Part shown: in pieces, positions 33,540 through 50,002 of the stretch | How the letters are laid out: each line of letters opens with the position of its first letter | How positions within the stretch are numbered: position 1 is the first letter of the stretch | NCBI GenBank assembly: GCA_965213925.1 | Contig: OZ243927.1 | Coordinates: 4,416,001-4,480,000, forward strand | Length of the DNA: 64,000 bases | Direction: 5' to 3' | Source of the DNA: Trueperaceae bacterium | GTDB lineage: Bacteria > Deinococcota > Deinococci > Deinococcales > Trueperaceae | The notes under the pieces: generated by a model | The model's database searches: none | What the model saw: the letters and a program-made list of their open reading frames with translations, nothing else | Told to the model about the DNA's origin: nothing | Position numbers and translations under genes: made by a program

Positions 33540-33687
33540 CTTGCGCTCTTTTCTTTGGGAGTTAGGTCGTTCGGAGCTGGAGTGGTCAAACAGCTAGGTA
33601 AAGTCACGTTATCCACCGAGTCAGACGGACTAGGTAGCGTGTAACTCGGCAGAAGCGGTGTAGGAAATTCGTCACAACCGACACGTC

Positions 33688-34896
33688 TCATCTCGCCTCA
33701 ACTCCATGAGGGGTCGTTCGCCTGGCGTCGGTAGGCTCAGCAACCTCAGCCAGACACGCTGACACGGAGTCTACCATCGCCTGCAAGGAGAAGTGCGCCT
33801 GCGCCCCTACGCGCCCCCGCGCGGCTAACCGTTCGGCTTCCTCGGGCTGCTCGAGCAGCGAGGCGAGCGCCCTGGAGAGCGCCCTGGCGTCGCCGGGCTC
33901 GACTAAAACGCCTCTGTCCGCGCCGACGATCTCGCGCGCGCCGCCCGCGTTCGAAGCCACTACCGGGCGACCCGCCAACATCCCCTCGACGATAACCCGG
34001 CCGAAGGGTTCGGGCGCGGTCGAGGTGTGCGCGACCACGCTCGAGAGCTTCATCAGCGCGGGCACGTCGCGCCGAAAGCCCAAAAAGTGAACGCGCGCGG
34101 AGAGCCCTAGCGCTTTCGCGCGCGCCTTCAGCCTCTGCGCGTACGCCGCTTCGCCGAAGAGCGCCTCGCCGACGAAGAGCGCGTGGACGTCACCGAGATG
34201 AGGGGGCAGGTGAGGCAGCGCCTCTAACAGAACGTGCTGCCCCTTCCAGGGTGACAAGCGGCTAAAAACACTCACGACGGGCGCGTCGCCTAGCCCCAAA
34301 GTTTGGCGTAAGGTCGCGACCTCCGCCGCCGTCACCGCCTCAAAGGGCGCAGGGTCGATGCCGTTATGGACCACGCGAACCGGCGCGCGCCCGCCTGCGG
34401 CTGCGAACGCCTCGGCGGTCGCTTGCGAGTTGGCGATGACCTGCGCGGTGAGGTGATTCGCGAGCGCCACGACGAGGCGGCGGTTGGTGCGGCTGAAGTG
34501 CTCCGCAGTCAGGATGTCGTGCAAGCACCACACGACAGGCCGCCGCGATATCTTGCCCGCCAACGCCGCCACGACAAAGGCTTTTTGAGAGTTGGCGAAG
34601 ATGAGGTCGAAGCCTTTCGCCGCCCTCGCGACCTGAGCGACAAGGCGCAGCAGACCCGGAACCGCGCGGAAAGCGCCGCCGCCCCTATCCTCCCTCGAGA
34701 CTCCCGTCACCGCGCTAGGGGTCTGAAGAACCTGGACGTCTACGCCCGCCTCAGCCAACCGCTCACGAAACGGACCGTCCGAGAAGAGCATCACTTTGCT
34801 GCCCGCGTGACGCGCCGCATCGTGCTTCGCGAGGTCGAGCAAGTAGAGTTCCGCCCCGCCTAAGACGCCTGCGTGGTCCAAAAAGAGCACCCTCAT
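33688..34896 (-). CDS. Glycosyltransferase family 4
   Basis: True start MRVLFLDHAGVLGGAE at 34896; RLSPWKGQ, EPFGRVIVEGM. Confidence 0.9.
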   Translation of the reverse strand: MRVLFLDHAGVLGGAELYLLDLAKHDAARHAGSKVMLFSDGPFRERLAEAGVDVQVLQTPSAVTGVSREDRGGGAFRAVPGLLRLVAQVARAAKGFDLIFANSQKAFVVAALAGKISRRPVVWCLHDILTAEHFSRTNRRLVVALANHLTAQVIANSQATAEAFAAAGGRAPVRVVHNGIDPAPFEAVTAAEVATLRQTLGLGDAPVVSVFSRLSPWKGQHVLLEALPHLPPHLGDVHALFVGEALFGEAAYAQRLKARAKALGLSARVHFLGFRRDVPALMKLSSVVAHTSTAPEPFGRVIVEGMLAGRPVVASNAGGAREIVGADRGVLVEPGDARALSRALASLLEQPEEAERLAARGRVGAQAHFSLQAMVDSVSACLAEVAEPTDARRTTPHGVEAR

Positions 34897-36341
34897 GCAG
34901 TTTTCCCAACGGCGCGCTTTGAGCGCTCGAACTCGTACGACGACAGCGTCAAACATAAGAAAAACCAGATGACCACGCCCATCACGCCGACCCAGGCGTT
35001 GCCGAAGGCGACCTGGCTGAGCCCCGCCACCGCGACGCTCAAGCAGGTCGTGCCGAACGCGCCCGAGCGCCTGAGGCGCGCCAGCGCGAGCGCGAAGAGC
35101 CAGCCGACGCCGCCCGCGTAGTAGAGCGTCCCGAGCGCGCCGAAGGCGTACGGCACCGCGATGACGCCGCTGTCTAGGTTGACCACGCCGCCCCGCGCGT
35201 TTAAGTCGGCGGCGACGCCCGTACTCCCCAGCCCCAGACCGAGCGGATGCCGGACGAGGAACGACGCCATGTCGGTATAGAGCGTCAGGCGGGCGCGGTA
35301 ACTCACGTCGCCCTGAACGTTGTCGAGCGACTCGAAGCGCGTGTTGACCGACTCGGCGATAGGTCCGAAGCGTAAAAGGGGCAGCGCCGCGACGCCGACC
35401 GCGACCAAGGTCAAGGCTAAGCGCGTGCGCTCGCGCGCCGGCAATTGCGCGGCGAGGACGAGCAGACCCACGACTAGCCCGCCCCAAGCGGAGCGCACCA
35501 GCGAGAGCATAAAGCTCGCGAAGCCGACCGCAGCCGCCCCCCAGCGGAGCACGCCGGGCGTGCGCAAGAGCAGCAGCAGCCCCGCCAGCATCACCACGGC
35601 GAACGGTCCCGGCGAGTTGAGCGTGCTGAAGACGCGCACCTCGAAGGGCTCGGGCGACCCGATGGAGCCCATGTCGGACTGGACCATCCAGTAGCTGTCC
35701 CACGCAGGCATGACCAGAAATTGGTAGAGCCCGTAAAGCCCCATGACCAGCACACCCCAGATGAAGGTGCGCTGGACCACGCGCCGCTGCGCCTCAAAGT
35801 GGTGCGGCGTAACGAGCAAGTACGCGCCTAAAACCACGGGCGCGAGCCAGTTGAGCAGGTCGAAGGTTGCGCCGAACACGCTGCCGAGCAGAACGCCGAT
35901 CCCGTAGCCGTACATGAGCCCCAGCAAGACGAGCGCGAAGGGCAGCCGGTAGCGCGGCGCGAAGCGGTGCAGGTTGAAAAATACCGGGAACGCCGCTAAG
36001 CACGAGACCAGAAAGGGCGCGACCATGACCAGGCTCGCCTCGGTGTAGCCCGTCTGGTTATCCACTAGGCGGCGCACCTCGGGGGTCAAGAACCAGAGCC
36101 ACCAGGTGTAGCCTAGGTAGCCCGCCGGACGCTGCCAGAGCCAGAGCGCGCCGACGCCCGTCGCCAGCACCGGGAACGCGAGTTGTAAAACGCTCGAGCC
36201 GCCCCCAACGACACCCAGCGCCGTAACGCCCACGAGCCCGATAAGGGACGCTATGGGCAGAGCCTCCAAATACACGTTACCGCCGCGACCACGCCCTGCG
36301 GGGGACCCGCCTTCGGCTCGAGCCCGGTACGCGCGTATCAC
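34893..36341 (-). CDS. Wzy / O-antigen ligase-like polysaccharide polymerase
   Basis: About 11 TM; RVFSTLNSPG, SLVRSAW, R...Y...PLGLGLG, DSG. Confidence 0.8.
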   Translation of the reverse strand: MIRAYRARAEGGSPAGRGRGGNVYLEALPIASLIGLVGVTALGVVGGGSSVLQLAFPVLATGVGALWLWQRPAGYLGYTWWLWFLTPEVRRLVDNQTGYTEASLVMVAPFLVSCLAAFPVFFNLHRFAPRYRLPFALVLLGLMYGYGIGVLLGSVFGATFDLLNWLAPVVLGAYLLVTPHHFEAQRRVVQRTFIWGVLVMGLYGLYQFLVMPAWDSYWMVQSDMGSIGSPEPFEVRVFSTLNSPGPFAVVMLAGLLLLLRTPGVLRWGAAAVGFASFMLSLVRSAWGGLVVGLLVLAAQLPARERTRLALTLVAVGVAALPLLRFGPIAESVNTRFESLDNVQGDVSYRARLTLYTDMASFLVRHPLGLGLGSTGVAADLNARGGVVNLDSGVIAVPYAFGALGTLYYAGGVGWLFALALARLRRSGAFGTTCLSVAVAGLSQVAFGNAWVGVMGVVIWFFLCLTLSSYEFERSKRAVGKTA

Positions 36342-37204
36342 CGGTTCGCCTCCGCGGGTGCTGTAGCGTCTATCGGTGCGTCTTTGTAGGTATCCTCTTT
36401 ACAGGTGTCCTCCGGCGCGTAGAGCGCGGGCGGGTGAGGAGTGCGCGCCGCGTTCTGCCGCTCCCACAGCTTGGCGTAGCGGATAAAGTCGCTCGTCGCC
36501 TTGAGCAGCGAATGCATGAGCCCGCGCGTTCCCAAGCGAAAGCCCCCTCTGGCGACGTAGCTCCACAAAAAGCGCAGCACGGGCTTCACGGCGATGTCCG
36601 CCGCCGTCGCCCGCTTCCCCAAACGGTCGAGTTCAGCGGCTTCTAGGGTCGCGTAGCGGTTGAACAGCCCGACGAACTCGTCCACCGTATGCCCGTTCCA
36701 GTGGAGCAACACCCCCTCGACCGGAATGGACACGCCGGGAAAGCGCACCTCTTCGTGCACGTTCATCGCCGTGTCATAAGCGCTCTCCTTGCGGTTATAG
36801 AGCCGCACGAAGCTTCGCCTCTTGCTAGGTCGCGACTCGTTCGGCAGCAAGACGCCCAAAAAGTCGCCGCGGCGGTCTAAGGCGTAGGCGTTACGGGCGT
36901 CCAGCGGTCCGCGCAGCACCTCCTGCAAGGACGCGGACAGCTCCGGCGTAGCGACCTCGTCCGCGTCCAAAAAGAGCACCCAGTCGTGCTGAGCCAGCGC
37001 CGCCCCCCGGTTGCGCTGCTTCGAAAAACCGAGCCAAGGCTGCTCGAACACGTTCGCGCCCAAAGACGCCGCGATCTCCTTTGTATCGTCCGAGCTGCCC
37101 GAGTCGATGACGAGCACCTCGTCCGCCCAGCGCACGCTGCGGATGCAGCGCCCGATGAACTGCGCTTCGTTCTTCGTCATGATTACGACGCTGAGAGGGG
37201 TCAT
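36338..37204 (-). CDS. Glycosyltransferase family 2 (WaaE/KdtX-like)
   Basis: SVVIMTKNE, DSGSSDDT, WLGFSKQRN, LDADE, VHE. Confidence 0.9.
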   Translation of the reverse strand: MTPLSVVIMTKNEAQFIGRCIRSVRWADEVLVIDSGSSDDTKEIAASLGANVFEQPWLGFSKQRNRGAALAQHDWVLFLDADEVATPELSASLQEVLRGPLDARNAYALDRRGDFLGVLLPNESRPSKRRSFVRLYNRKESAYDTAMNVHEEVRFPGVSIPVEGVLLHWNGHTVDEFVGLFNRYATLEAAELDRLGKRATAADIAVKPVLRFLWSYVARGGFRLGTRGLMHSLLKATSDFIRYAKLWERQNAARTPHPPALYAPEDTCKEDTYKDAPIDATAPAEANR

Positions 37205-37293
37205 ATCAACCTCTTTTGACCGCACGGTTGGTCCACAAGATTAAAGTCACTGACCGAGATGCCACAGATGGCGATGTCGCTGACACGAAGCTC

Positions 37294-38250
37294 CTAACTC
37301 TGCACTTTCGTAGACCCCAAGCGCCTCAACCAGCGCGCTTTCACAATCGTTAAACCCAGACGGACGCTGTTCTTGGCGTAGCGCAGCCTTGGATAGTGCG
37401 CCAACGCCTCCTGGTGGAGCTGCGACGCTTCCTTGTCGTCGCCCGCATAGAGCAGCGAGCGCCACGCCGTATGAAGATACGCCCGCCCCAAAGCTCGCCC
37501 CTTGAGGTGCTGCTGCGCCGCGGGCACATCCCGAAAAGATTTATCGATGATTCGGCGGAGCGTAGGCAGGAGCGACTGATAGTTCTTGTGCTTGTTGTCG
37601 GCGTGCTGGCGGTAGGCAGCTAGGGGTTCTTTAACTACCGCAAAGCGGTAGCGCGCGGTGATGCGAATCCACATCTCCCAGTCTTCGGCGTAGCGAAAGC
37701 TCTCGTCAAACGTGCCGACCTCTCCGAAGAGTCGGCGGCGCACCAGCGGCGTGCTGCCGCAGCGCACCAGGTTGTACTCGACCATCTGCGCCCACACGTC
37801 GCCCTCTAAATGCTGCGTCATCACCTTGCCGATAGGCTCGCCCGCCGCGTTGATATACGAAATCCAGGTGTCCACCAAGCCCACCTCAGGGTCAGCCTCC
37901 ATGCGCGCCACCTGCTTCTCGAGCTTCGTCGGCTGCCACAGGTCGTCCGCGTCCAGAAAGGCGACGTACTCGCCCCTTGCCGCCGCCACGCCCGTGTTGC
38001 GCGCCGCCGCCGCGCCGCCGTTGGGTCTCGAGACCAGCTTGACCCTCGGGTCGGGGTGCGCCGCCGCCCAGCTCGCCGTATTGTCCTTGCTACCGTCGTC
38101 TACGATGAGCACTTCGAAGTCTTGGAGCGTTTGTGCCAAGACGCTCTCGACGGTGTGCGGAAGAAAGCGCATGGCGTTGTAGGCGGGGATGACGACCGAC
38201 ACTTTGGGAATAATATGTGGAGCTTTGGAAGAACTTGGCTGATAGGGCAT
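37294..38250 (-). CDS. Glycosyltransferase family 2
   Basis: VSVVIPAYN, VDDGSKD, ARNTG, FLDADD, EDWEMW. Confidence 0.92.
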   Translation of the reverse strand: MPYQPSSSKAPHIIPKVSVVIPAYNAMRFLPHTVESVLAQTLQDFEVLIVDDGSKDNTASWAAAHPDPRVKLVSRPNGGAAAARNTGVAAARGEYVAFLDADDLWQPTKLEKQVARMEADPEVGLVDTWISYINAAGEPIGKVMTQHLEGDVWAQMVEYNLVRCGSTPLVRRRLFGEVGTFDESFRYAEDWEMWIRITARYRFAVVKEPLAAYRQHADNKHKNYQSLLPTLRRIIDKSFRDVPAAQQHLKGRALGRAYLHTAWRSLLYAGDDKEASQLHQEALAHYPRLRYAKNSVRLGLTIVKARWLRRLGSTKVQS

Positions 38251-38390
38251 GGTGTCCTTTTACGTGAGTCTCAACACTGTCGCTGGCACGACCTTAATCT
38301 CAGAGGTTGCGCGTCCCGCGAAGTCCGGTGTGAGTAGCGGACCGGTCCACGTGAAGTTTAACTTTTTTCAAACTAAGATATGCTGAGTGA

Positions 38391-38598
38391 TACCAATTCC
38401 GATTGATTCTCAATCAATCCGAGCGAAAAAGTCTTCAACCGGGCGTATCATGCCGTCGTAATGTCGCTCATATTGGCTATTCGTTGATGTTACCACCGGT
38501 TGAGGACTCTCCTGCGAGCAGGAACAAATATACGGATGGAGCGTATGGACTATCACCGAACGCTTCTCTCGGTGATAGGGAATTAAGCGGAATCCGTA
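38391..38598 (-). repeat. Deinococcus-type ~210-bp MITE-like structured repeat, copy 1
   Basis: Ends TACCAATTCCG / CGGAATCCGTA; reverse-complement match to 52824-53040; several internal hairpins. Confidence 0.88.
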
Positions 38599-38607
38599 TG
38601 ACCCCGC

Positions 38608-39660
38608 TCACTCGGCACCGCTCACAACCTCTCGAAAAGCTTGCCATGTTTCCTTGCCGACCTCTCCCCACTCGAGCGCGTTCAGGTCCGCGCGTTGCCC
38701 CGCGACCCCTCGCGCCCACGCCTGACTCGCCCGTAGGTCCGCCGCGCTCAGCATTCCACGGTACATCTTAACCCAAGCCTCACCCACTTTCCCCTGCAAC
38801 TCCTCCATCGCACCCATGTTAGGGACCAGGATAGGTGTATCGAGCGAGAGCGCCATCAGCGCGCTGCCCGAATGCAAGATGTCCTTGTAGGGAAGAACCG
38901 CGACGTCCGCAGCGGCGAAGTAGTATTGTAGGTCGTCATCCGGGATAAACGTCAAGTGGAGCCGCACGCGCGGGTCATCCTGCGCTGCTTTCTCTATCTC
39001 ACGCTTTAAGCGGGGCGTGCGAGGATTGCCCGCGACCAAAAGCAGCGTCTGCTCGTCGTCAAGTTCGCGGAAGGTGCGCACAAGGTGGGGCACGTTTTTG
39101 TACCTTCTGATCTGCCCGAAGTGCAAGACAACCCCGACCTCTTCCGGTATCCCCAGGCGCTCGCGGGCAACTCGTTTTGACACCTGCACCTGATGCGAGT
39201 CGCGGTAATGACCTCTCGGAATCACGAACGAGGGCAGCGTTTTGAGGTGCGGAAACTTTGCGGTAGCCTCATCTGCTGCCGTTTGGCTGAGCGCAATCCA
39301 GCCGTCTAAGAGTTTGACGTAAGGGCGGTAGAAAAACGGCTCTAGGTAGGGATGATAGCGCTCGTGCGGGCGGAGGTTATGCACTGTCCACACGAGCTTA
39401 ACTCCTTTGGACTTAGCCTCTTTCAGCCAGCCCAATATCTCAGAGGTGTGCTTCATGATTTTGAGGGGGCTGCGCGTGTTGAAGTGGGTGTCGGGCCAGT
39501 GGATGTGCCACACGTCGTAACCGTCTACGCTAAAACGCCCCTCAGACATCGCCTGGGTCGAGAAGTCGTCTATCTCGACGCCAAAGGGTTTCATGCTGCC
39601 GTACAAGAGGTCCATGTGGTTATTCGTGGGGATGGAGGCGGGCCAGGCGAGTATTCGCAT
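38608..39660 (-). CDS. Glycosyltransferase family 4-like
   Basis: HIHWP, VWTVHNL.PH, FGQIRRYKNV, D..VLPY....SG. Confidence 0.88.
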   Translation of the reverse strand: MRILAWPASIPTNNHMDLLYGSMKPFGVEIDDFSTQAMSEGRFSVDGYDVWHIHWPDTHFNTRSPLKIMKHTSEILGWLKEAKSKGVKLVWTVHNLRPHERYHPYLEPFFYRPYVKLLDGWIALSQTAADEATAKFPHLKTLPSFVIPRGHYRDSHQVQVSKRVARERLGIPEEVGVVLHFGQIRRYKNVPHLVRTFRELDDEQTLLLVAGNPRTPRLKREIEKAAQDDPRVRLHLTFIPDDDLQYYFAAADVAVLPYKDILHSGSALMALSLDTPILVPNMGAMEELQGKVGEAWVKMYRGMLSAADLRASQAWARGVAGQRADLNALEWGEVGKETWQAFREVVSGAE

Positions 39661-39691
39661 ACTTTTCCTCTTCAGATGTGTTGGACTTAGC

Positions 39692-40903
39692 TTAGAGCGC
39701 CTCGATAAGCGCGACGAACTGTTCGTTCAAAACATCGTTATTGAACTCCCGCTCGACTTTAGCGCGGGCGGCGCGGCTCATATCGCTCAAAGTCTGAGGG
39801 GACGAGAGAAGCTCGAGCAGCCCCCTAGCGAGTGCGTCACTGTCGCGCTCGGGCACTAGATAGCCCGACACGCTATGTTCGATGAGTTCGGGGATGCCGC
39901 TATGCCAGGTGCTCAGCACGGGCGTTCCTTGCGCCATCGCCTCCATGATTGCCACTGGGATGCCCTCCATATCGCCGTTTTGCGCCGTGACGCTCGGCGC
40001 GAGCAGCACGTGAGCTTCGGAAAGCGTTTCGAACACGACGCGGCTCGGCTGAGGTCCTAAAAACCTAACGTGTGTCTGCACCCCTAAATGTGTCGTCTCA
40101 GCTTCTAGCACTTTGCGCAACGGACCGTCACCGATGATCGTATAGACGAGGTCGGGGTGCTGTGTAATAACGGCAGGCAGGGAGCGAATCGCGTAGATGA
40201 GCCCCTTTTTCTCTACCGCCCTCGCGACGCTCAAAAGCTTGACGGGCTCTCTCAGCGGCGTAGGATTAAAGGCGATCTCCGAACACGCGACGCCCATGTG
40301 GTGCACGCGCATCTTTTCAGACGGGAAGCCTTTCTCCTCGAGCCGCGCTTTCCACAGCTCGTTGACGGTTAGGAACAGGTCGCCCTCCTCCCTAAGCTGA
40401 GCGTAAGCGTCAGGGTGCGCGTCCAAGTAGGCGGAAACGTCAACCCCGTGAAAGATAGTAACGATTTTTCCAGAGAGTGCCCCGGCACCCTTGAGCGCCG
40501 CCGCCTCAGCGCCGTTGTAGCCGAAGTGACAGCAGACTACGTCGAAGGGCGGCTTCTGATTGAGAAAGGTCACACCAGCGGCAAAGAGCCGCGCGCTCCA
40601 GCGTCCTCTCAGGTAATCTCGAGGGCGCAGCACGCTCAAGTAAGCGGGGATGTTCGCGGGGTGGCGCACACACGACCTCAACATAAGCGCCGCCACGCTG
40701 AAGAGTCGCTCGAGCTTACGGCGCTCACCGGGCAGATAGAGGACCCTCACCCGCTCCGCCACCGGCACGTTGGCGCTAGGGTCCGCGCTAGGTTGCGCAA
40801 CCACGCTCACCTCGTGCCCAGCTTGGGCGAGCGCCTCGATCTGGCGGTAGACAAACGTCAAAGAGGTCAAGGGAAACTCCCTCAGCACGAACGCTATCTT
40901 CAC
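39692..40903 (-). CDS. Glycosyltransferase family 4, WcaL-like
   Basis: FP..S.TF, HFG, FHGVDVS, R.VEKKG, DMEGIPVAIMEAMA. Confidence 0.9.
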   Translation of the reverse strand: MKIAFVLREFPLTSLTFVYRQIEALAQAGHEVSVVAQPSADPSANVPVAERVRVLYLPGERRKLERLFSVAALMLRSCVRHPANIPAYLSVLRPRDYLRGRWSARLFAAGVTFLNQKPPFDVVCCHFGYNGAEAAALKGAGALSGKIVTIFHGVDVSAYLDAHPDAYAQLREEGDLFLTVNELWKARLEEKGFPSEKMRVHHMGVACSEIAFNPTPLREPVKLLSVARAVEKKGLIYAIRSLPAVITQHPDLVYTIIGDGPLRKVLEAETTHLGVQTHVRFLGPQPSRVVFETLSEAHVLLAPSVTAQNGDMEGIPVAIMEAMAQGTPVLSTWHSGIPELIEHSVSGYLVPERDSDALARGLLELLSSPQTLSDMSRAARAKVEREFNNDVLNEQFVALIEAL

Positions 40904-40909
40904 GGCTAT

Positions 40910-42247
40910 TTACGCTTTCACATGGTCTTGAGCTGACGGTTTACTTGCGGGGTCTAGGTCAAACACGTAGTCCAAAGCGTCGAAGGATGCCTCAGCCCGC
41001 CGATGCTCGCTCAGAACACCTTCAAAAAGCTGCTTATTGAAACTCGAGTAGTGCTCGACAAAACGCTCAATCTTACCTGCTAGTTCGTCGCCTGTAACGG
41101 TATCGATGTCCGAAACATACTTACCGATGCCGAAGCGACGAAAGAGTTCGGTCGTTTTGAACTCGTAAGAGATAGGCACGACGGGCGTACCTCTCGTAAG
41201 TGACAAAATAGCGACGTGCAGCCGCGTTGCTATGACAAGGTCAAAATCTGCCAGCTTAGCTTGCAAATCGAAAGGATCGTTGAAGTCAGAATTGACGGTT
41301 ACGCTCGCCTGATAGACTGGGTCTAGCTCGTCGAATACGCGCTGCGCGACTTTGGCGTCGTCCACCCAGTATTCAGGTATGCCCTGACAGGTGGAAATAA
41401 AGGTCACTTGCGCCCCGTAGGTGTCAATGACGAATTCCGTCGCCTGCCGGACGGCTTTCAGATATCTCTTCATACCGACGTCGGGCGAATCGTTTTTGAA
41501 ATACGGCCAGTGCCGCACCGATATGGCTACACGCTTAGGACGTAACGCTATAGCTTCACCCGCTTCCGCCACCTCTTTCTCTACCGCCGTAACGAAAACA
41601 GCGTCGGCTGACACCTGCATGTTGTCCGCCGTGTTCACGCTCTTGCAGTGTTCGTAAGAAGCCTCGTCGCGAAGCAGAATAAGGGCACACTTGGGAAACA
41701 CCTGACTCAGCATCTCTCGGTTGCGCTCCTCTGTAAAGGGTCCCATCGACTGAGTAAAGAGGACGACGGGGCGACCTGTGGCGAGCGAGAAACTTAGTTC
41801 GTCGTACCTCCTCTTGATGGAGTAGTTCTCGACGATGTAGGTCCCGCCCGTACCAATAATCATATCTACACTTACGTAATCGTCGAAAATCGCTCTCACC
41901 CTTGCTGGCATGAGCGCGCGGGCTAGGTTGATCCAGCCCCGCCTGAGCAGGGCGAGCGAAAGCACAGCCCGCACACGCTGCCCCTCTTGTTTTATCTTTC
42001 GACGTATCTTGCTGACTAGACCGGGCTGCGCCGCCGACCCCTCCCCCCCAAACGACCTCAAAACGTACTGTAGCTGGCTCTTGATCGTCAGGTCTGGGTA
42101 GTAGCGACGCGCCGCCTCTGCCTGGGAATCGTAGATCACAAACTCCGTATCGGGCCCGTATTTCTGCTCCATGCCCGCGATCATAGACTTGAGTATGGCG
42201 GCGTCGCCGGCGTTGAGCATGACTATATTTGTGATAGCGATTTTCAC
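40910..42247 (-). CDS. Polysaccharide pyruvyltransferase, WcaK-like
   Basis: NAGDAAI, GGTY, QSMGPF, LRDEAS, ADAVF, TRLH, YEFKT. Confidence 0.9.
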   Translation of the reverse strand: MKIAITNIVMLNAGDAAILKSMIAGMEQKYGPDTEFVIYDSQAEAARRYYPDLTIKSQLQYVLRSFGGEGSAAQPGLVSKIRRKIKQEGQRVRAVLSLALLRRGWINLARALMPARVRAIFDDYVSVDMIIGTGGTYIVENYSIKRRYDELSFSLATGRPVVLFTQSMGPFTEERNREMLSQVFPKCALILLRDEASYEHCKSVNTADNMQVSADAVFVTAVEKEVAEAGEAIALRPKRVAISVRHWPYFKNDSPDVGMKRYLKAVRQATEFVIDTYGAQVTFISTCQGIPEYWVDDAKVAQRVFDELDPVYQASVTVNSDFNDPFDLQAKLADFDLVIATRLHVAILSLTRGTPVVPISYEFKTTELFRRFGIGKYVSDIDTVTGDELAGKIERFVEHYSSFNKQLFEGVLSEHRRAEASFDALDYVFDLDPASKPSAQDHVKA

Positions 42248-42276
42248 GTGATGAAGCCTCCGTTAGCGGTTCGCGC

Positions 42277-43743
42277 TCAGCCTTTAGCTTTGAGAGGGCG
42301 GCGTAGCGGGAGCGTCGTGCGAACGAGGTCGAACACTCTGAGCGACAAGGCTGGGGCGATCAGCCTTATGCTCGCTAAATAGGACGTGCCGCCCGCGAGC
42401 GCGAGCAGCGCGAGCCTGACGGCGGGCGCGAGGTTAGCGGACAGCGTGAGCGTAGCGTAGAGCGCGCCGACCATGAGGAGCGAAGCAGTGAGCGGACCTA
42501 GAAAGCGTCTGAGATAGTCCTTGATGCTTATGTTGGTGAGCCGCTTGACCATGATCACGCTGACGGGCGAAAGAATGTATGCGCGGATTGTATAGGCTGC
42601 CGCGACCGCTTCGATGCCGAAGCGCACCACGCTCAGAAACGAAACCAGGTTGATCACCGCCGAGAGCGCGCCGTAAGCGACCTGCCACTGAGGTTTCCCG
42701 TAGGCTTGAACGACGACGAAATTGAAACTGAGCGAAGTCTGAATCATGCCCGCGCCGCAGAGAATTTGCAGCACGAGCACGCTCTTTGTCCACTCCTCGC
42801 CGAACACGAGAGGCACCAGCAGAGGTGCGACAAAGGCGAGACCTATAAAGGCAGGGAACGCCAAGAAGCTAACCGTCTCTATGAGGGAATAGAACGCCCT
42901 CCTAGTACGGGCAAGCTCCGTTTGCGTACGCGAAATAGCCGAGAACGCGACCTCGGAGAACGACGAGGAGAAAAGCTCCGCAACGATATAGTAAGCGCGG
43001 TAGGCTACGCCGTAAAAGCCGAGCGCGGTGGGACCAAGGAACGCGCCGATCAAGAGGTCATCGCTACGCCGGTTGATAAACGTCAGCGCCCGTGTGCCGA
43101 ACGAGTTGACTTCAAAAGCGAAGAGGTCTACGAAGTGCTTCCTCGAAAACGCGAACCTCGGTCTCCAGGAACTTAAAAACCACAAGGTTGCTGTGGACAG
43201 GACGCTCGAGATAAGTTGCTGAGCGACGAGGCTCCACACCCCGAAACCTGCGAACGCCATACCCACCCCGACAGCGCCGCCCACAACTAACCCCAGCAGG
43301 GTCCGCACCGCGAGCGCTCTATACGCAAGCTCTCGCTGCAAATAAGCGTTCTGCACGTTGACAAATGCGTTGATGATAAAGACGAGCGAGAGCCAGCGTA
43401 AGATAGCGCCGAGTTCTGGCTGGTTAGATAGATGGGCGATGAGGGGCGCAAGCGCGAAGACGAGCGCTGTGAGTAGAGCGCCCGTGACGATATTGCTCCA
43501 GAAGGCGGTGTCTAGGTGCTCTGGTTCGAGCTTGGGGCGCTGCACGAGCGCTTTGACGAAGCCGTTGCCCAGAAAGATATCGGCTATAGCGATAAATACG
43601 CCCGCGTAGGCGACGAGGCCGAACGCTTCCGGTCCGAGGAGCCGGGCGAGGATGAAAAAGACGAGCAAACCCCAGAACCGGGCAGCCCAGCGCTGCACAA
43701 GAGACCAGACGACTCCGACAATCGTTCTTTCTTTAAGGCTCAT
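42277..43743 (-). CDS. Wzx flippase (PST family)
   Basis: LARLLGPEAFGL, ALVQR, GFGVWSLV.QQ, DDLLIG..LG..ALGFY. Confidence 0.92.
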   Translation of the reverse strand: MSLKERTIVGVVWSLVQRWAARFWGLLVFFILARLLGPEAFGLVAYAGVFIAIADIFLGNGFVKALVQRPKLEPEHLDTAFWSNIVTGALLTALVFALAPLIAHLSNQPELGAILRWLSLVFIINAFVNVQNAYLQRELAYRALAVRTLLGLVVGGAVGVGMAFAGFGVWSLVAQQLISSVLSTATLWFLSSWRPRFAFSRKHFVDLFAFEVNSFGTRALTFINRRSDDLLIGAFLGPTALGFYGVAYRAYYIVAELFSSSFSEVAFSAISRTQTELARTRRAFYSLIETVSFLAFPAFIGLAFVAPLLVPLVFGEEWTKSVLVLQILCGAGMIQTSLSFNFVVVQAYGKPQWQVAYGALSAVINLVSFLSVVRFGIEAVAAAYTIRAYILSPVSVIMVKRLTNISIKDYLRRFLGPLTASLLMVGALYATLTLSANLAPAVRLALLALAGGTSYLASIRLIAPALSLRVFDLVRTTLPLRRPLKAKG

Positions 43744-44023
43744 TATTCGTGGGTCTCATCTCAGAAATGGGAGTAGAGGTGGGTGCGCCATAAGGCTCGA
43801 GCTTACGGTAGCGAGTCGCCTCCTCGAGGTGCCACCGCCCAGCGCATTTAACCATAAGCCACAGTTCATGTCTACGCGGTCGGACGACCGTAAGGACATA
43901 GCCAGAATGGAAAATGCTATCTTGAATCCGCGGAGCAAACGCCGCGTTTAATACGGAGTGTCTAAATTTTGCGGTACGCCGCGACCCACTCGAACCCCTG
44001 GAAAGCCCTATAAGGAGCGACCC

Positions 44024-44845
44024 ATGAACGTTGGACACATGCTACGTGAGGTCAAGACTAAAGCCAGCAGTACGTACATGCGCCTGAGTTACAGACGAAA
44101 GGCTAGAGTCTACTGCGTCGGAACGGCGAAAAGCGGCACGCACTCAATTGCTGAGATGTTTGACGACACCGTTCGTTCGGGGCACGAGCCTGAATACCGC
44201 GAGGTCATCCGGAAAATCTTCGAGATTGAAGAGGGGAAGATGTCAGAGTCGGCGGCCCTGTCCTACGTCCGAGCCAGAGATAAAAGGCTCTGTTTAGATA
44301 TCGACTCGTCTCAGCTCAACTTCTTTATCCTTAGCTACCTTTTAGAGGCGTTTCCGGATGCGCGCTTTATCCTCACCATCCGAGACTGTTACTCCTGGTT
44401 GGACTCTTTTATCAACCACTCGCTGCGCCGAGATGCCAGGAAAGAATGGATTGCACTTAGGGATTACCGGTTTCAAGCGCACACCTTGTCACACCCTCCA
44501 GAGGAGCGGGCGCTCGAAGAGAGGGGGCTATACACGCTCGACGGCTACCTCTCATACTGGGCGCACCATAACCACAAGGTTTTATCTTCTATTCCACAAG
44601 ACCGCCTTATGGTGCTCAAAACAAAGGAGATAACGCAGTCGGCTCAGGCTATCGCTGCGTTTACCGGTCTGCCGAAAGAAACGATACTGCTAGAGAAATC
44701 TCACGCCTTCAAAAACCCCGAGAAGTACAACGTCTTACGAGAGATCAAAGAGACCCATCTCGAGGCGAAGGTACACCTGCACTGCGGCGACCTCATGAGC
44801 AGATTCTTCCCTGAGATTCGTTCCGTACGTGATACGGAAGTTTGA
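44024..44845 (+). CDS. Sulfotransferase family protein
   Basis: 5'-PSB loop VGTAKSGTHS; 3'-PB motif FPDARFILTIRD..SW..S; AAGGAG SD. Confidence 0.82.
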   Translation: MNVGHMLREVKTKASSTYMRLSYRRKARVYCVGTAKSGTHSIAEMFDDTVRSGHEPEYREVIRKIFEIEEGKMSESAALSYVRARDKRLCLDIDSSQLNFFILSYLLEAFPDARFILTIRDCYSWLDSFINHSLRRDARKEWIALRDYRFQAHTLSHPPEERALEERGLYTLDGYLSYWAHHNHKVLSSIPQDRLMVLKTKEITQSAQAIAAFTGLPKETILLEKSHAFKNPEKYNVLREIKETHLEAKVHLHCGDLMSRFFPEIRSVRDTEV

Positions 44846-45098
44846 GGGACGCATTAGATGCGAGATGAAGCAACGAGTCCCAGCACGGTGGAGCGGGCGC
44901 GAATATACGGCGCTTCCACGTAACGTTACTACATTTCTCCGCAGGCATCATCCCCAAATGTGCGTGTCAAGCGATATTTTTTGAAGTGAGAGTATCTCAA
45001 ACCAGATGATACCTGCTATAAAAAATGCTTTCAGAAACGGTGTGAGCTGAAGTTGTGGCGGGACTCAAAGTGGAGGCGGAGACTGCCAAGGCAGTTGC

Positions 45099-46073
45099 TC
45101 AATCCTTAATTGTCGGAGCACTTTCTACTCGCGCCGTTGCACCATTCACTATTAAGCTGTCCTGCGGCAGAAAACGCACCTCACGCTCGAGCCACACCCC
45201 AAAGCGCTCCTGCACCACCTCTTGAATATGCGCCATCAGCGCCTTGACGTCTTGCGAGGTCGCCTCGCCGCCGTTCTCGATCCAGTTGGCGTGCGTGGGG
45301 CTCACCACCGCACCGCCGACCTTATAGCCTTTGAGCCCGGCTTGGTCGATATACCAGCCTGCGGGCTCGCCCCCCTCGGGCTGCTTAAAGACGCTGCCGC
45401 TCGTGTGACGCTGCAAGGGCTGCTTGGCAGCGCGCTTTTTGAGCACCTCTTTTTGCCGCGCCTTGATCGCGTCTACGTCGTCTCGTTTTTCGGCGCGAAA
45501 GGTCGCGTCTAGGACCCAGTGAGTGTGCAAGAGGTCGCTGTGGCGGTAGCGCAACCCGGCTTCGCTGGCGCTGAGCGTTTGGATGCGCCCTGTGGCCAGC
45601 TCGAGCGTCCGCACAGATTCTAAACGTTCGCTGATCGAGACGCCGCTCGCCCCGCCGACGCCGGCGTTAATGGCGACGCCTGCGCCCACCGTGCCGGGAA
45701 TGCCAATTAGAAACTCGAAGCCAGAGAGACCCGCTTGCCCCGCCTTGACCGCGAGTTTAGGAAGCGGACAGCCCGCCTCCGCGCGGACGCGCCCCCCGTC
45801 GGCGTCCACCGTGACCTCGTCGAAGGAGCTGCGCAGACAGACGACCACGCCGGGGACGCCCGTGTCGTCGATGAGCGTGTTCGAGCCGCGCCCTAAGATG
45901 GTGAGGGGCAAGCAGGCGTCTTTAGCGTACTCGTAAGCGGCGATGAGTTCGTCGGCGCTGTCGGGCTCTAAGAGCACCTCCGCTTCGCCGCCGATGTTCC
46001 AGGTCGTGTAGGGCGCGAGCGCGTGGTGGTAGCGGGGCGCGTTGACGTAGTCGGGAGGAGCGAGTTCAGGCAT
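45099..46073 (-). CDS. murB: MurB-like enolpyruvyl reductase (paralogue within the EPS locus)
   Basis: TTWNIGG, LGRGSN, GIPGTVG...NAG, YRHS, GSVFK, HANWI.N, LEREV. Confidence 0.88.
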   Translation of the reverse strand: MPELAPPDYVNAPRYHHALAPYTTWNIGGEAEVLLEPDSADELIAAYEYAKDACLPLTILGRGSNTLIDDTGVPGVVVCLRSSFDEVTVDADGGRVRAEAGCPLPKLAVKAGQAGLSGFEFLIGIPGTVGAGVAINAGVGGASGVSISERLESVRTLELATGRIQTLSASEAGLRYRHSDLLHTHWVLDATFRAEKRDDVDAIKARQKEVLKKRAAKQPLQRHTSGSVFKQPEGGEPAGWYIDQAGLKGYKVGGAVVSPTHANWIENGGEATSQDVKALMAHIQEVVQERFGVWLEREVRFLPQDSLIVNGATARVESAPTIKD

Positions 46074-47400
46074 AGCTGATGTCGCCGCCTAAACTCCGCA
46101 GCTTCTGCACGAAACCGTTGTAGCCGCGCTCGACTTGCCAAGCATCTTGCACGTACGTCGTGCCGTCCGCGGTGAGCCCCGCGAGCGTGAGCGAGACGCC
46201 CGCGCGCAGATCGAGCGCCTTGACCTCCGCGCCGCGCAGGGGTGCGCCGCCCGCGATCTTGAGCAAGTTGCCGTCGACCTCGCGCTGCGCGCCCATCTTG
46301 GCGAGTTCGTCGGCGTAGCCGTAGCGCCCTGGAAAGCGCAGGTCGACGATGCGCGATTCGCCCCGCGCGCACGCGCCGTAGAGCGCGAAGAGGGGCTGCA
46401 TGTCCGAGTTGATGCCGGGGTAGGGTCCGGTGCTGATCTCGACGGGGAAGCAGCGCCCGCCGCGGACGATGAGGCTGTTTTCGCCCCTGTAGAACTTCGC
46501 GCCGCTCTCGCGCAGGTGGATGAGGGGCACCTCTAAATCTTGGGCGGGAAAGTTGACGATCTCGACGCTGCCGTGCGTCACCACCGAGCCGATAAGCCAG
46601 GTGATCGCCTCCATGTTGTCCGCGATGACCGTGTGCTGCGTGCCCGAGAGGGACTCCGAGCCGATGATCTCGATGTGCTCTTGCCCGAACACCTTGATGC
46701 GCGCGCCCATCCCCCTTAAAAATTCGATGAGGTCTAAAATTTCGGGGCGGATGTGCGGGTTCCAGACGCGCGTGATGCCCTCCGCCAGACTTCCGCAAAT
46801 AATCGCATTTTCGGTCGCGCCCGTCGAGCGTATGGGCAAGTAGATGTCGTTGCCCCGCAAACGCCCCGGCGCGCTCGCGCAGAGCGTGTCGCCTTCGGTC
46901 CAGACCTCCGCGCCGAGGCGGCGCAGCACCATCTCGTGCAGGTCGAACTTGCGCTCGCCCAGTTTGCAGCCACCCGGCAGCGGCACCTTGCCCTCACCGA
47001 GACGCGCCGTGAGCGCCCCTAAGATCAGCAGCGTGTTCCTGATCGAGCGACCCGACCACTCGAGCGTTGCGTGGGGCGCGCCCGCCTCTTCGCCTATCGT
47101 GATCGTTTCGCTGCCTGGGGCGCACGTCTTGCCGAGGGCGCGGAGCATCTCCACGTGGACTTGGGCGTCGAGCAACCCGGCTGGGTAGTTGCGCAGCACG
47201 ACCCGTTCGTCCGTTAAGAGGGAAGCGGCGAGCAGCCTGAGCACGCTGTTTTTCGCGCCGCTTACGTGGACTGTGCCCTCGAGCCGCGACATCCCCACCG
47301 CGTAGGTCGTCCGCTCGGGCTGCGCCGACGCCGTGTGCGGCTGCGAAGCCCGGTCTTCAGCTGTATCTACCTTTTCTGTCACTGCGGTGTCTTGTGGCAT
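46066..47400 (-). CDS. murA: MurA-like enolpyruvyl transferase (paralogue within the EPS locus)
   Basis: SGAKNS, LPGGCKLGER with catalytic Cys, STGATEN, YPGINSDMQP, DLRAG, ERGY; AGGAG SD before ATG 47400. Confidence 0.9.
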   Translation of the reverse strand: MPQDTAVTEKVDTAEDRASQPHTASAQPERTTYAVGMSRLEGTVHVSGAKNSVLRLLAASLLTDERVVLRNYPAGLLDAQVHVEMLRALGKTCAPGSETITIGEEAGAPHATLEWSGRSIRNTLLILGALTARLGEGKVPLPGGCKLGERKFDLHEMVLRRLGAEVWTEGDTLCASAPGRLRGNDIYLPIRSTGATENAIICGSLAEGITRVWNPHIRPEILDLIEFLRGMGARIKVFGQEHIEIIGSESLSGTQHTVIADNMEAITWLIGSVVTHGSVEIVNFPAQDLEVPLIHLRESGAKFYRGENSLIVRGGRCFPVEISTGPYPGINSDMQPLFALYGACARGESRIVDLRFPGRYGYADELAKMGAQREVDGNLLKIAGGAPLRGAEVKALDLRAGVSLTLAGLTADGTTYVQDAWQVERGYNGFVQKLRSLGGDISYA

Positions 47401-47778
47401 CGTTACACTCCTAAAGAAGGATTCTAGCCGTAAACGCGCGCGCATGTCGCGCATAAGTCACATGTCGAGGTCAGTTTTGTGCTGCTTGTTCTGTGCTGCT
47501 TATGGCTAGGTGCCGCGCGGCGCTCTTCTCGCGGCTACATCCCGTGTGCGGAGTTCGCACCTGTTTCCATCATGCAAGCATATGGGTGCTGACAACGTTT
47601 CCTGCGTAGCGGGACCGCTTCATAAGTTGTACTAAGCGCTAGTGAGACCGATCACAGACCCGGAGCGCGACTCGCCCGGCGAGCGGCGCGAGCACCCCCG
47701 AGCGCATCTGTCACACGAATATTTCATATACACAGCGCGGCTTTGCCCCTATTATAAAGCATACCTGAGGGACACCCC

Positions 47779-47900
47779 GCCCTCGGACGCGATGAAACCT
47801 GTTTCGCAATGAGCTTCGGAAGGGAAGCGTAACGCGGCCTTTCCGAAGTTCTCTTGGGCGCTTGAAACAGGCGGAGCAAGTAGCGCAACCGGCCGGGGGC
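47779..47900 (+). ncRNA. c-di-GMP-II riboswitch with an inserted hairpin
   Basis: P1 GCCCTCGG/CCGGGGGC; GGACGCGATGAA; CCTGTTTC/GAAACAGG; loop GGGCGCTT pairing with AGCGC of GGAGCAAGTAGCGCAACCGG, matching the class II consensus with covariation. Confidence 0.82.
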
Positions 47901-48032
47901 ACACCTTTGCTTTCTCACGTCATCTTCTGCGTCTATCCCCTTGCGTTCTCCCTGTGCCCACCTAACCGAGTTGAGCTGAAGCCTGGCTCGCCAGGTCTCA
48001 ACACACTCACCGGGGTCATTTGGAGGCAGAGG

Positions 48033-49943
48033 ATGAAAAGGAACATTCAGGTTGTGAAACGGACGCTGACTCAGTATGCTAAAGGCGTGGTGGCGGCTCT
48101 GTTACTCCTTTTATTCGCGGCGTGCGGCGGCGTAACCCAAGCACCTACTTTGGATACGCTCGCGGCGACCTTGGCGACGAGCGAGCACGGGCTCGTCGTC
48201 GAAGCCGAGGCGTTTCACGCGAAGGCGGCTAAGGGCAAGCACCAGTGGAAAGCGCGCGGCGACGCGATGTACGCCTTGCCCGACGTCAAAACGACCTACA
48301 ACAGCAACTTTACTTTGAGAAGCCCCCGCTTGGACTACCGGATCAGCGTCGAGCAGCCCGGCACCTACTACGTGTGGGTCAAGGGAATGGCGGCCGGCAG
48401 CTCGAAGGGCAGCAGCGACTCGGTACACGTCGGCTTAAACGGCAAAGCGGTAAGGAGCGCCGACCGTATCAGCGGCTTTGGTACCCGCTTCGGTTGGAAA
48501 AAGGGAACGATGGACGGCCCTAGAGCCAAGCTCAAGCTGAGCGCGGGGACCCACACCCTCAACGTCTGGATGCGCGAAGACGGTTTCGCGTTCGATAAGC
48601 TCGTCTTAACCCGCGACGCTAGCGCGAAGCCCGCCGCCGTCATCAAGGCGACCGAAAACGAGCAAGAGGCGACCAGCGGTCCGGCGCTGCCCGTGCCGAG
48701 TAGCAAAGAGAACACAATGAGTTTACCGCGCGTAAAAGCGAAATCTGCGGGCAGCTTTATCGACAGCATCGGCGTGAACACGCACCTGCACTACCAGGGC
48801 ACGGTCTACGACAAACGCTACGAAGACCTTATCAAGCCTAAGCTTTTAGAGCTAGGCGTCCGCCACATCCGCGACGGCGCGTACACCTACGAGGAGGCAG
48901 GGCGCAACACCTTCTTCTACAAGCGGCTCCGCGAGCTAGGCGCGGCGGGCATCGACTTCAACCTGCTCACCTCATTAGAGACCCCCTATAACGACGCCAC
49001 GGACTACAGCAAGTTGGACGACGTCGTCTCCTGGACGGACGGCGCGGTCACTTCGTTCGAGGGCATCAACGAGCCCGACTTGCAAGGCATCAGCGGTTGG
49101 GTCAACCTCACCAGAGACGCGCAGAAGAAACTCTACGGCACCGTAAGGGGCAACCCGGCGCTCAAGGACGTAAAAGTTTTAGGTCCGTCGCCCGTATGGA
49201 AGGCGAAAGACTTGGGCGACTTGAGCCGCTACATGGACTACGGCAACACCCACCCTTACCCCGGCGGTAAGATGCCGACTGGCAGCGAGTACGGTCAGAG
49301 CACCCAAACCAGCATGGTCAAAGCCTCCAGAAACAGCGGCGTCAAACCCGTCATGTTCACCGAAACGGGCTATCACAACGCCCTCAAAACCGACAACGAT
49401 CACGCACCGACCTCCGAAGCGGCGACCGCCAAGTACCTCCCCCGGATGCTCCTGGCGCACTTCAACATGGGCGTGCCGCGCACCTACCTATACGAACTCA
49501 TCGACAGCAAGTCCAAAGGGCGCAGCACGGACCCCGAGGCGTCCTTCGGGCTCTTGCGCAACGACGGGTCCGAAAAGCCCGCCTTTAGAGCGGTGGAGAA
49601 CCTCATCGACTTGCTGGAGGACTCCGGCACCTTCACGCCCGGCGCGCTCAACTTCTCGCTGAGCGGCAGCGCGGACGACGTCCACCAGACGCTCCTGCAG
49701 AAGCGCGACGGCACCTTCTACTTAGCGCTCTGGTCGGCGAAGGAGAGCTGGGACCGCGACTCGAGAGAAGACGTCCGCGTGAACGCGCAAAACGTCACCG
49801 TGACGCTCGGTTCAGACGTTAAGAACGTGACCTTACATACCCTAAACGGCGCGGGGCGCATGTCCAAAAGAGCAGTGTCCTTACAGAACGGCTTGGTCGA
49901 GCTTAAGGTCGGTGACAGCGTGACGGTGCTCGAGCTTCGTTAA
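48033..49943 (+). CDS. Lipoprotein glycoside hydrolase, clan GH-A (GH5/GH39-like), with an N-terminal CBM-like beta-sandwich
   Basis: Lipobox LFAAC; EAE..REDG..FDK domain; GVNTH, NEPD acid/base, HPY, TETG nucleophile, FGLLRNDGSEKPAF. Confidence 0.85.
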   Translation: MKRNIQVVKRTLTQYAKGVVAALLLLLFAACGGVTQAPTLDTLAATLATSEHGLVVEAEAFHAKAAKGKHQWKARGDAMYALPDVKTTYNSNFTLRSPRLDYRISVEQPGTYYVWVKGMAAGSSKGSSDSVHVGLNGKAVRSADRISGFGTRFGWKKGTMDGPRAKLKLSAGTHTLNVWMREDGFAFDKLVLTRDASAKPAAVIKATENEQEATSGPALPVPSSKENTMSLPRVKAKSAGSFIDSIGVNTHLHYQGTVYDKRYEDLIKPKLLELGVRHIRDGAYTYEEAGRNTFFYKRLRELGAAGIDFNLLTSLETPYNDATDYSKLDDVVSWTDGAVTSFEGINEPDLQGISGWVNLTRDAQKKLYGTVRGNPALKDVKVLGPSPVWKAKDLGDLSRYMDYGNTHPYPGGKMPTGSEYGQSTQTSMVKASRNSGVKPVMFTETGYHNALKTDNDHAPTSEAATAKYLPRMLLAHFNMGVPRTYLYELIDSKSKGRSTDPEASFGLLRNDGSEKPAFRAVENLIDLLEDSGTFTPGALNFSLSGSADDVHQTLLQKRDGTFYLALWSAKESWDRDSREDVRVNAQNVTVTLGSDVKNVTLHTLNGAGRMSKRAVSLQNGLVELKVGDSVTVLELR

Positions 49944-49966: not shown

Positions 49967-50002
49967 AGGCGGAGGTTTTCGTAATCTCCGCCTCTCCTTT
50001 TG
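49967..50002 (+). terminator. Intrinsic terminator after the glycoside hydrolase
   Basis: AGGCGGAG / CTCCGCCT stem followed by CTCCTTTT. Confidence 0.6.

Follow-up and report, generated by a model that had tools for sequence, protein, structure and literature searches.

A class II c-di-GMP riboswitch with a hairpin inserted in loop L3 precedes a PslG-like lipoprotein gene in a Trueperaceae bacterium

We analyzed a 64,000-nucleotide stretch of DNA from a Trueperaceae bacterium (NCBI GenBank assembly GCA_965213925.1, contig OZ243927.1, positions 4,416,001 to 4,480,000 of the forward strand), hereafter the window. An aptamer of class II for c-di-GMP (cyclic diguanosine monophosphate) at 47776–47903 (plus strand) lies upstream of a gene for a 636-residue lipoprotein, a putative hydrolase (48033–49943, plus strand), which starts with ATG at 48033 behind GGAGG and ends with TAA at 49943. 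A divergent Wzx/Wzy-type polysaccharide cluster, recognized by domain matches and synteny, occupies 31968–47454 on the minus strand. The source genome (G000, 96.9% complete) was compared with two congeners, G001 and G002; counts out of three given below take in the window copy and both orthologs.

The aptamer is found by standard models. When the whole window was scanned with Rfam at gathering thresholds, the single match was to RF03169 at 47776–47903, which scored 41.7 bits (cut-off 40; E = 9.9e-05 in cmscan against all of Rfam) with 43 positions inserted in loop L3. The canonical model, RF01786, scored 45 bits (E = 2.4e-8 in the genome search), below its cut-off of 53.5. The fold comprises helices P1 (47779–86/47893–900), P2 (47789–90/47876–77) and P3 (47798–805/47864–71), a pseudoknot between 47856–62 and 47882–86 together with 47889–90, and a hairpin inserted in L3 (47811–47851), all on the plus strand. 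GGACGCGATGAA at 47785–96 belongs to the 5′ part, GGGCGCTT at 47856–63 carries the pseudoknot loop, and AGCGC lies at 47882–86 within the aptamer motif 47873–92. P1, the stems, the pseudoknot strands and the hairpin all stand where the original prediction, made from the letters of this DNA, had placed them. That prediction had also set GCGCU/AGCGC apart from the usual GCACU/AGUGC; the pairing does differ from the Rfam consensus, but it is the local norm, GGGCGCT being read in 9 of the 12 3′ halves listed for G000. The words UGA and GAG of a putative k-turn, taken as sequence words alone, are conserved between P2 and P3, and the accessible part of PMC4316175 describes a k-turn in the class II c-di-GMP riboswitch.

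When 14 aptamers of the genus, which are kin and not independent, were aligned with MAFFT, 92.8% of cells were paired, against 36–48% in slid controls. Fifteen pairs had changes on both sides, and the core covaried well above shuffled and slid controls. Double-sided change reached all eight pairs of P3 and five of the eight in P1, and the pseudoknot was 100% paired and nearly invariant. Across the three genomes the aptamer core is near-invariant, whereas the insert and the spacer diverge. Thus, the RF03169 score above cut-off, the canonical pocket and the covariation confirm a real riboswitch of a known class, as had been proposed.

Pocket residues were mapped by spacing onto 3Q3Z numbering (A14–U60, A69, A70 and G73, with ceiling and floor adenines, in PMC13715770); the numbers of floor A13 and ceiling A61 were obtained through an offset of five from that paper's own construct. 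Mapped in this way, A13 would fall at 47787, position 14 at C47788, position 60 at A47878, A61 at 47879, A69 at 47887, A70 at 47888 and G73 at 47891, with A13, A61, A69, A70 and G73 canonical. Although RF03169 (c-di-GMP-II-GAG) is the best-scoring model, its consensus has GAG at positions 67–69, where the window aptamer has GCA (47885–87). This difference rules out a GAG variant that binds something else, so that the biofilm signal c-di-GMP is the ligand to be expected, and the RF03169 label appears to reflect a lower cut-off rather than variant identity. A separate class II aptamer of the source genome (L004, G000:C1:3669679–3669768) has G at position 69 (GCG form); L058, L067 and L034 have similar forms. 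L004 precedes a subtilase lipoprotein and a TPR-GGDEF gene and is a candidate for changed ligand specificity.

The lipoprotein has a lipobox cysteine at Cys31, a GH115_C-like β-sandwich (residues 55–195), a barrel of glycoside hydrolase (GH) clan GH-A and a further β-sandwich. A profile built from 75 of 120 listed homologs matched the GH39 structure 5JVK (E = 2.4e-9) and PslG (E = 3e-7). The predicted structure (predicted local distance difference test score of 87.8) retrieved PslG at Foldseek ranks 1–3 (E = 8.6e-20, TM-score 0.71 on the target) and 5JVK at rank 4. The putative acid/base E347 (NEP motif, codon at 49071) and nucleophile E444 (codon at 49362) are each present in 75 of 75 rows, and N346 in 74. 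E444 aligns to the TE motif of PslG, which corresponds to E276 when counted assuming a four-residue tag. PslG is a GH39 enzyme, and its E165Q/E276Q variant is reported as inactive in the accessible part of 10.1101/032714. With PslG as the top structural match, two invariant glutamates and the lipobox, the prediction of a surface-anchored clan GH-A hydrolase holds up; the protein probably works like PslG, with no GH family number assignable. The family is patchy, occurring in 8 of 301 genomes of the phylum, and the orthologs (P0002 and P0004, 805–812 residues) have two GH115_C-like domains where the window protein has one.

The hydrolase gene neighbors the exopolysaccharide (EPS) genes, as first described, but the cluster is divergent and runs away from it on the minus strand. 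The cluster comprises murA2, murB2, wzx, a pyruvyl transferase gene, GT4/GT2 glycosyltransferase (GT) genes, a wzy-like gene and wzc, with a sulfotransferase gene on the plus strand; murA2/murB2 and the sulfotransferase gene separate the hydrolase gene from the EPS genes. In all three congeners the hydrolase gene is syntenic with wzx, GT genes, wzy and wzc, and its other-side neighbors differ. For the wider family we matched 79 metagenome loci, 35 of them at least 8 kb long, against the window polysaccharide proteins. At least one such protein was found in 23 of the 35 long loci and at least two in 21, compared with 8 of 175 length-matched windows of G000, a comparison that includes some nearly duplicate loci and takes its control windows from a different genome. 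Synteny and co-location thus both uphold the proposed link to EPS. The second murA and murB (45099–47454), which head the cluster, are 33–36% identical to the other genomic copies; G001 keeps only murA2, and G002 has neither within the region retrieved. The two enzymes may provide the polymer with an enolpyruvyl or lactyl sugar.

A scan of 17 homolog loci found a class II aptamer, in each case without an insert, at four loci of genus g31, and a class I aptamer upstream of a distant hydrolase homolog at two near-identical metagenome loci. Since two unrelated RNA folds precede genes of the family, c-di-GMP control of this hydrolase family appears to recur, in line with the regulation originally proposed. 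At L120/L122 (2237–3573) there is a pair of class I aptamers, each on a different strand, and one of the pair precedes the GH homolog.

A σ70-like promoter (TATACA, 17 nucleotides, TATTAT) lies at 47727–47755 on the plus strand, a weak assignment given two such sites found against 0.6 expected in shuffles; it predicts a transcription start at about 47761–47765. A TAnnnT box stands shortly upstream of a leader hairpin, P0, in all seven GH-linked aptamers. P0 (47765–47786, plus strand) pairs 47765–71 with 47780–86 and is an anti-aptamer fold that excludes P1. Its strands are the same in all three congeners and compensated in another genus, and in all seven GH-linked aptamers, from two genera, it beats 291–299 of 300 shuffled leaders. 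Downstream, three plus-strand pairings would compete for the RNA between P1 and the start codon. An early alternative hairpin (47895–47914) uses the 3′ strand of P1 by pairing 47895–901 with 47908–14, and its equivalent reaches 0.57–0.67 in all three orthologs at one prefix length. A relay helix (47897–47959) pairs GGGCACA at 47897–903 with TGTGCCC at 47953–59, overlapping P1 and enclosing a segment complementary to the ribosome-binding site (RBS). That anti-RBS (47920–30) pairs with 48026–36, extending the element to 48036, where the Shine–Dalgarno (SD) sequence GGAGG is at 48022–26 and the ATG at 48033; its pairing probability in the full leader is 0.93, and the orthologs have equivalent anti-RBS segments. 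UGUGCC is invariant in all three congeners within divergent surroundings.

Folding of successive transcript prefixes, modeled without ligand and without the pseudoknot, gave the same order in all three congeners: P1 forms as its 3′ strand emerges (0.93–0.99), then P0 (0.81–0.99), then GGCACA:UGUGCC, the last with a pair probability of 0.98 at the prefix ending 17–19 nucleotides past the helix. The relay helix is kept until the SD appears in G001 (0.97) and G002 (0.85), and full leaders relax in the model into an RBS-masked fold. With P1 free or locked, respectively, the RBS was unpaired at 0.45/0.32 in G001, 0.45/0.27 in G002, 0.58/0.32 in L199, 0.52/0.41 in L200 and 0.56/0.32 in L204, and was nearly equal in L197 (0.49/0.46). 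Locking P1 thus left the RBS less open in five of seven GH leaders and more open in none. The models therefore favor P0 and GGCACA:UGUGCC as the conserved switch elements. The pairing of AGCAAG with TTTGCT, offered earlier as the alternative fold, does form in models of the window copy at some transcript lengths (0.80–0.84), but at 0.00–0.02 in both orthologs it is rejected as a conserved switch helix. A terminator scan listed no intrinsic terminator between aptamer and start codon, and control by one was rejected. The composition of 47904–970 (27 C, 23 T, 10 G and 7 A) would allow Rho-dependent control. A terminator-like hairpin follows the hydrolase gene at 49967–49993 on the plus strand, weakly, as three were found against 2.7 expected by chance.

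The L3 hairpin of the window copy has 14 bp plus 3 bp at −26.8 kcal/mol, and none of 1000 shuffles was equally stable. The orthologs in G001 and G002 have a longer insert with identical junctions and a three-way junction fold. Spacer lengths are 93/92/60 at the window locus and 91/37 at another locus. The source genome has 11 RF03169 matches above cut-off plus two partial class II matches, L013 and L014. Inserts are present in 5 of 10 aptamers of G001 (two of them identical), in 2 of 11 in G002, and in the window copy, L014 and the remnant L013 of G000, which overturns the idea of an insert unique to the hydrolase gene. Paralog inserts range from about 20 to 75 nucleotides with varied content, mostly start with GAG and finish with CTC, and occur in the same loop in both orientations and in filled, empty and eroded states. 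The orthologous site L068/L076, for example, holds an insert in G001 and stands empty in both G000 and G002 (L002/L003/L069/L077). The insert had been thought liable to hide the riboswitch; this is ruled out for the window copy by its RF03169 match, but the concern is borne out for longer forms, as Rfam gathering scores missed 7 of 14 insert-bearing aptamers (L013 excluded as a remnant), a loss that matters for annotation.

A word found in these inserts of the genus belongs to a dispersed intergenic repeat, with 117 or 155 fuzzy copies for two versions of the word, where shuffles of the first gave 0–4. With a length of about 120 bp, the repeat is followed by TA in 106 of 155 copies; a left-end word occurs in 87 of 155, compared with 10% of random windows. 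Its ends are shared with IS630 (PF13358) elements at C1:1889k, over about 30 nucleotides, and at C1:1553k. Shared ends, the TA flank and the lack of a transposase together mark the donor, from sequence, as a family of IS630-type MITEs (miniature inverted-repeat transposable elements). A repetitive extragenic palindrome with an associated transposase (REP/RAYT) was rejected as the origin, no Y1 transposase having been found in the 96.9% complete G000. A hairpin sub-module of the repeat, bounded by inverted ends of its own, was located at 19 distinct loci, of which one is L014 and two are apparently chance. A hidden Markov model (HMM) built from nine free copies of the module scored L014 at 42.9 bits, L060 (minus strand) at 35.0, the G001 ortholog L070 at 26.0 and L068/L076 at 22.9, with no equal among 200 shuffles; the G001 ortholog insert scores 21.7 and 26.0 bits on the two repeat HMMs.

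No target-site duplication was seen at the L3 insert junctions, so the module probably entered without ordinary IS630 transposition. At the filled G001 site, P3 is similar to the P3 of another paralog, and gene conversion between aptamers may have spread the insert as an alternative to repeated insertion. Most simply, the window hairpin would be an eroded copy of the repeat-derived module, gained in the genus and tied to the repeat through the G001 ortholog. The four g31 aptamers noted above lack it. The same loop holds unrelated hairpins in three further genera and in Anaerotalea. The exact pattern for a long L3 insert, a strict one whose rarity applies to the pattern only and to contig sets that may lack near genomes, hit one stretch in genome contigs (Anaerotalea, with an unrelated insert) and none in metagenome contigs. 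A looser family pattern gave 26 matches, many of them either normal aptamers with a chance word upstream or known loci met again; L089, L090, L096, L105 and the second aptamer in L097 were accepted as genuine inserts from beyond the genus, and the repeat HMMs scored none of these. We regard the insert as what looks like a tolerated, repeat-derived passenger rather than a special device of the hydrolase gene. As for the repeat itself, one copy lies within the window at about 44910–45018, several abut tRNA genes or stand directly before start codons, and its core word is present in 15 of 128 family genomes. The flanks of free modules (for example G000:C1 526044, 2102825 and 3874141) are loosely like the P3 and 3′ L3 sequences in some aptamers (compare L060), a likeness that might give homology targeting of the module to L3.

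We lean, with slightly better than even confidence, toward a functional class II switch on a monocistronic mRNA for the PslG-like hydrolase, acting kinetically to turn expression off, with the polymer as the enzyme's target and the L3 hairpin as a passenger. Granted a working switch, kinetic translational OFF control is moderately favored, from the prefix-fold order in all three congeners and the less open RBS with P1 locked in five of the seven GH leaders. The riboswitch would lie at the 5′ end of the transcript. In the nascent RNA, P1 would be favored once its 3′ strand emerges, and c-di-GMP could lock it; the anti-RBS, left free, would then pair with the SD and start codon and switch translation off. 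Without ligand, the leader would capture the 5′ strand of P1 in P0, the freed 3′ strand would pair with UGUGCC, and this helix would shield the anti-RBS so that ribosomes could load. High c-di-GMP would thus keep the hydrolase, which presumably acts on the polymer of the divergent cluster, low, and the polymer would stay on the cell. The L3 hairpin, as a module of the dispersed IS630-type repeat, would have come into L3 within the genus, then spread through the paralogous aptamers or entered them anew, and eroded while staying self-closed and tolerated.

Several observations weigh against this reading. (i) Position 14/60 is C·A in the window aptamer, not A–U, which lowers the claim for affinity and leaves the fold unaffected. 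(ii) Pfam recognizes only the GH115_C-like domain of the lipoprotein, no glycoside hydrolase catalytic model matches in Pfam or NCBIfam, and the NCBIfam search of the lipoprotein gave no match. (iii) The second GH paralogs of both G001 and G002 have glycolysis genes nearby and are away from EPS genes, with no aptamer found. (iv) Inserts of the window, G002, L065 and L072 score on neither repeat HMM, so that their origin leans on orthology or common junctions. (v) P0 occurs family-wide in 45 of 80 leaders against 39 expected, not above chance in this loose test, and is rejected as a rule for the whole family. (vi) The window relay helix drops to 0.12 before the SD and then to 0.00, and the window RBS is equally blocked in both states of the equilibrium model (0.15/0.15, and 0.19/0.19 in a separate run). 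(vii) In a crude RBS test of 53 family leaders, which includes some wrong open reading frame calls, 20 were more open bound and 8 free. (viii) The four class II switches of Clostridioides difficile are all ON switches, as far as the accessible part of PMC6200980 reports.

The last two points are also grounds for the same parts working as an ON switch, in which c-di-GMP would raise the hydrolase alongside polymer synthesis, for processing or export as with PslG in the psl operon. The accessible part of 10.1101/032714 places PslG within its biosynthetic operon, and the other targets in G000 are secreted, pilus-like or surface proteins. Here, however, the hydrolase gene is transcribed separately from the cluster, and none of the seven modeled GH-linked leaders becomes more open when bound, five being clearly less open; we give an ON switch limited credence. 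Decay of the aptamer, with the insert and C·A at 14/60 weakening binding, the leader resting in P0 and c-di-GMP control lost, seems very unlikely. It would account for the RF01786 score under cut-off and the lack of a modeled RBS change in the window copy, and L013 shows that an insert-bearing aptamer of G000 can lose its 5′ half. The near-invariant core amid a diverging insert and spacer speaks against decay, as does the frequency of non-canonical 14/60 in the family: the orthologs have U–A (G002) and A·G (G001), and many base combinations occur across 83 distinct family 3′ halves surveyed. The A14–U60 pair is itself deflected to a single hydrogen bond in the bound structure (PMC13715770).

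A different view of the insert is that it has been co-opted, the longer path between the P1 strands and the instant folding of the hairpin tuning timing or threshold, or the hairpin adding an RNase or protein site, with the repeat modules as tuning cassettes. The same loop and junctions recur at several loci, the hairpin is kept in all three congeners with three double-sided lower-stem changes between the window and G001, and the basal stem, counted in the rows where it is present, is 89% paired. Yet paired arms of a hairpin can also be homogenized by strand switching at the DNA level. The size spread, varied content, flipped orientation and empty orthologous sites, together with the unrelated hairpins in other genera and Anaerotalea, which point to a permissive site, make co-option improbable to us. 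We hold at a similarly low level its broadest form, in which transposon-derived hairpin modules repeatedly reach one class II loop and are kept for retuning the P1/P0 race, so that mobile DNA would serve as a plug-in threshold tuner of a surface-protein regulon, here of an OFF-type switch on the hydrolase.

Compared with c-di-GMP-II (RF01786, clan CL00127, 3Q3Z), the window aptamer is alike in P1–P2–P3 with pseudoknot, tandem GA motif, pocket adenines and G73, and position in the 5′ leader of a surface-protein gene. It differs in the 41-nucleotide stem in L3 (about 75 nucleotides with a three-way junction in orthologs), C·A at 14/60, P0 and the modeled OFF direction, which, if true, departs from the C. 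difficile pattern. A closer parallel in outcome is ZmpI of C. difficile, an enzyme releasing surface material that a c-di-GMP riboswitch represses, according to the accessible part of PMC6200980; there an adhesin-releasing protease is under a class I OFF switch, and here a predicted glycosidase is under a class II switch modeled as OFF. PslG of Pseudomonas aeruginosa (4ZN2, 5BX9) and 5JVK share the barrel and β-sandwich fold and the two invariant glutamates with the window enzyme, and PslG also the membrane-anchored N-terminus and the link to a polysaccharide cluster. At 14–19% identity, the window enzyme differs as a lipoprotein with an added GH115_C-like domain, a catalytic domain without a Pfam model, a different polymer, and a divergent monocistronic gene under a riboswitch. 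The repeat resembles IS630-type MITEs in its length of about 120 bp, its intergenic location, its short inverted ends common with autonomous IS630 and the TA that mostly follows, and it differs in having a hairpin sub-module, with its own ends, inside a riboswitch loop. RUP and Correia elements are TA-flanked examples of such MITEs.

In the accessible parts of two repeat reviews (PMC3184786 and PMC10969869) only T-box-like motifs inside BOX repeats are mentioned, and that of PMC3764141 covers class I only. A literature search that was poor in subscription papers and did not cover key primary papers turned up neither a repeat element within the loop of a riboswitch aptamer nor a riboswitch on a PslG-like gene. 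What is new here, with riboswitch class and kind of enzyme known and the pairing of the two well supported, is the recurrence of repeat-derived inserts in L3 and, probably, an OFF relay through the leader hairpin. The natural insert series (empty, about 20, 41 and about 75 nucleotides, in two orientations) indicates that L3 accepts large self-closed inserts and is a ready insertion site for sensor design. Both c-di-GMP riboswitch classes are tied to an unassigned family of PslG-like proteins that accompanies Wzy-type clusters, and the system allows one to test directly whether a cell gates the shedding of its own polymer at the RNA level.

The other aptamers of the source genome, which has 40 GGDEF matches, mostly precede first open reading frames that are lipoprotein-like or secreted; those scanned have β-helix, subtilase, BACON/Ig and CAP/PKD domains. 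Three aptamers, two of them in tandem (L005/L008/L009, G000:C1:3694670–3696087; L057–L066), precede clustered genes for secreted pilus-like proteins. Position 70 of the first aptamer is C in all three congeners, and one copy of the repeat stands between the second aptamer and its gene; tandem class II arrangements are already described in the accessible part of PMC9481103. In L013 (G000:C1:305105–305173) only the aptamer 3′ half and the insert end are left, the 5′ half being gone. An identical aptamer plus 673-residue β-helix lipoprotein gene is duplicated at L002 and L003 (G000:C1:3021 kb and 3986 kb), and the duplicates are likewise identical in G001 and in G002. At L001 (G000:C1:547–550 kb) an aptamer-controlled lipoprotein combines a β-helix with the shared GH115_C-like domains (64%) and has a second wzc and GT genes at a distance of about 20 kb, possibly forming a parallel polymer-lyase module.

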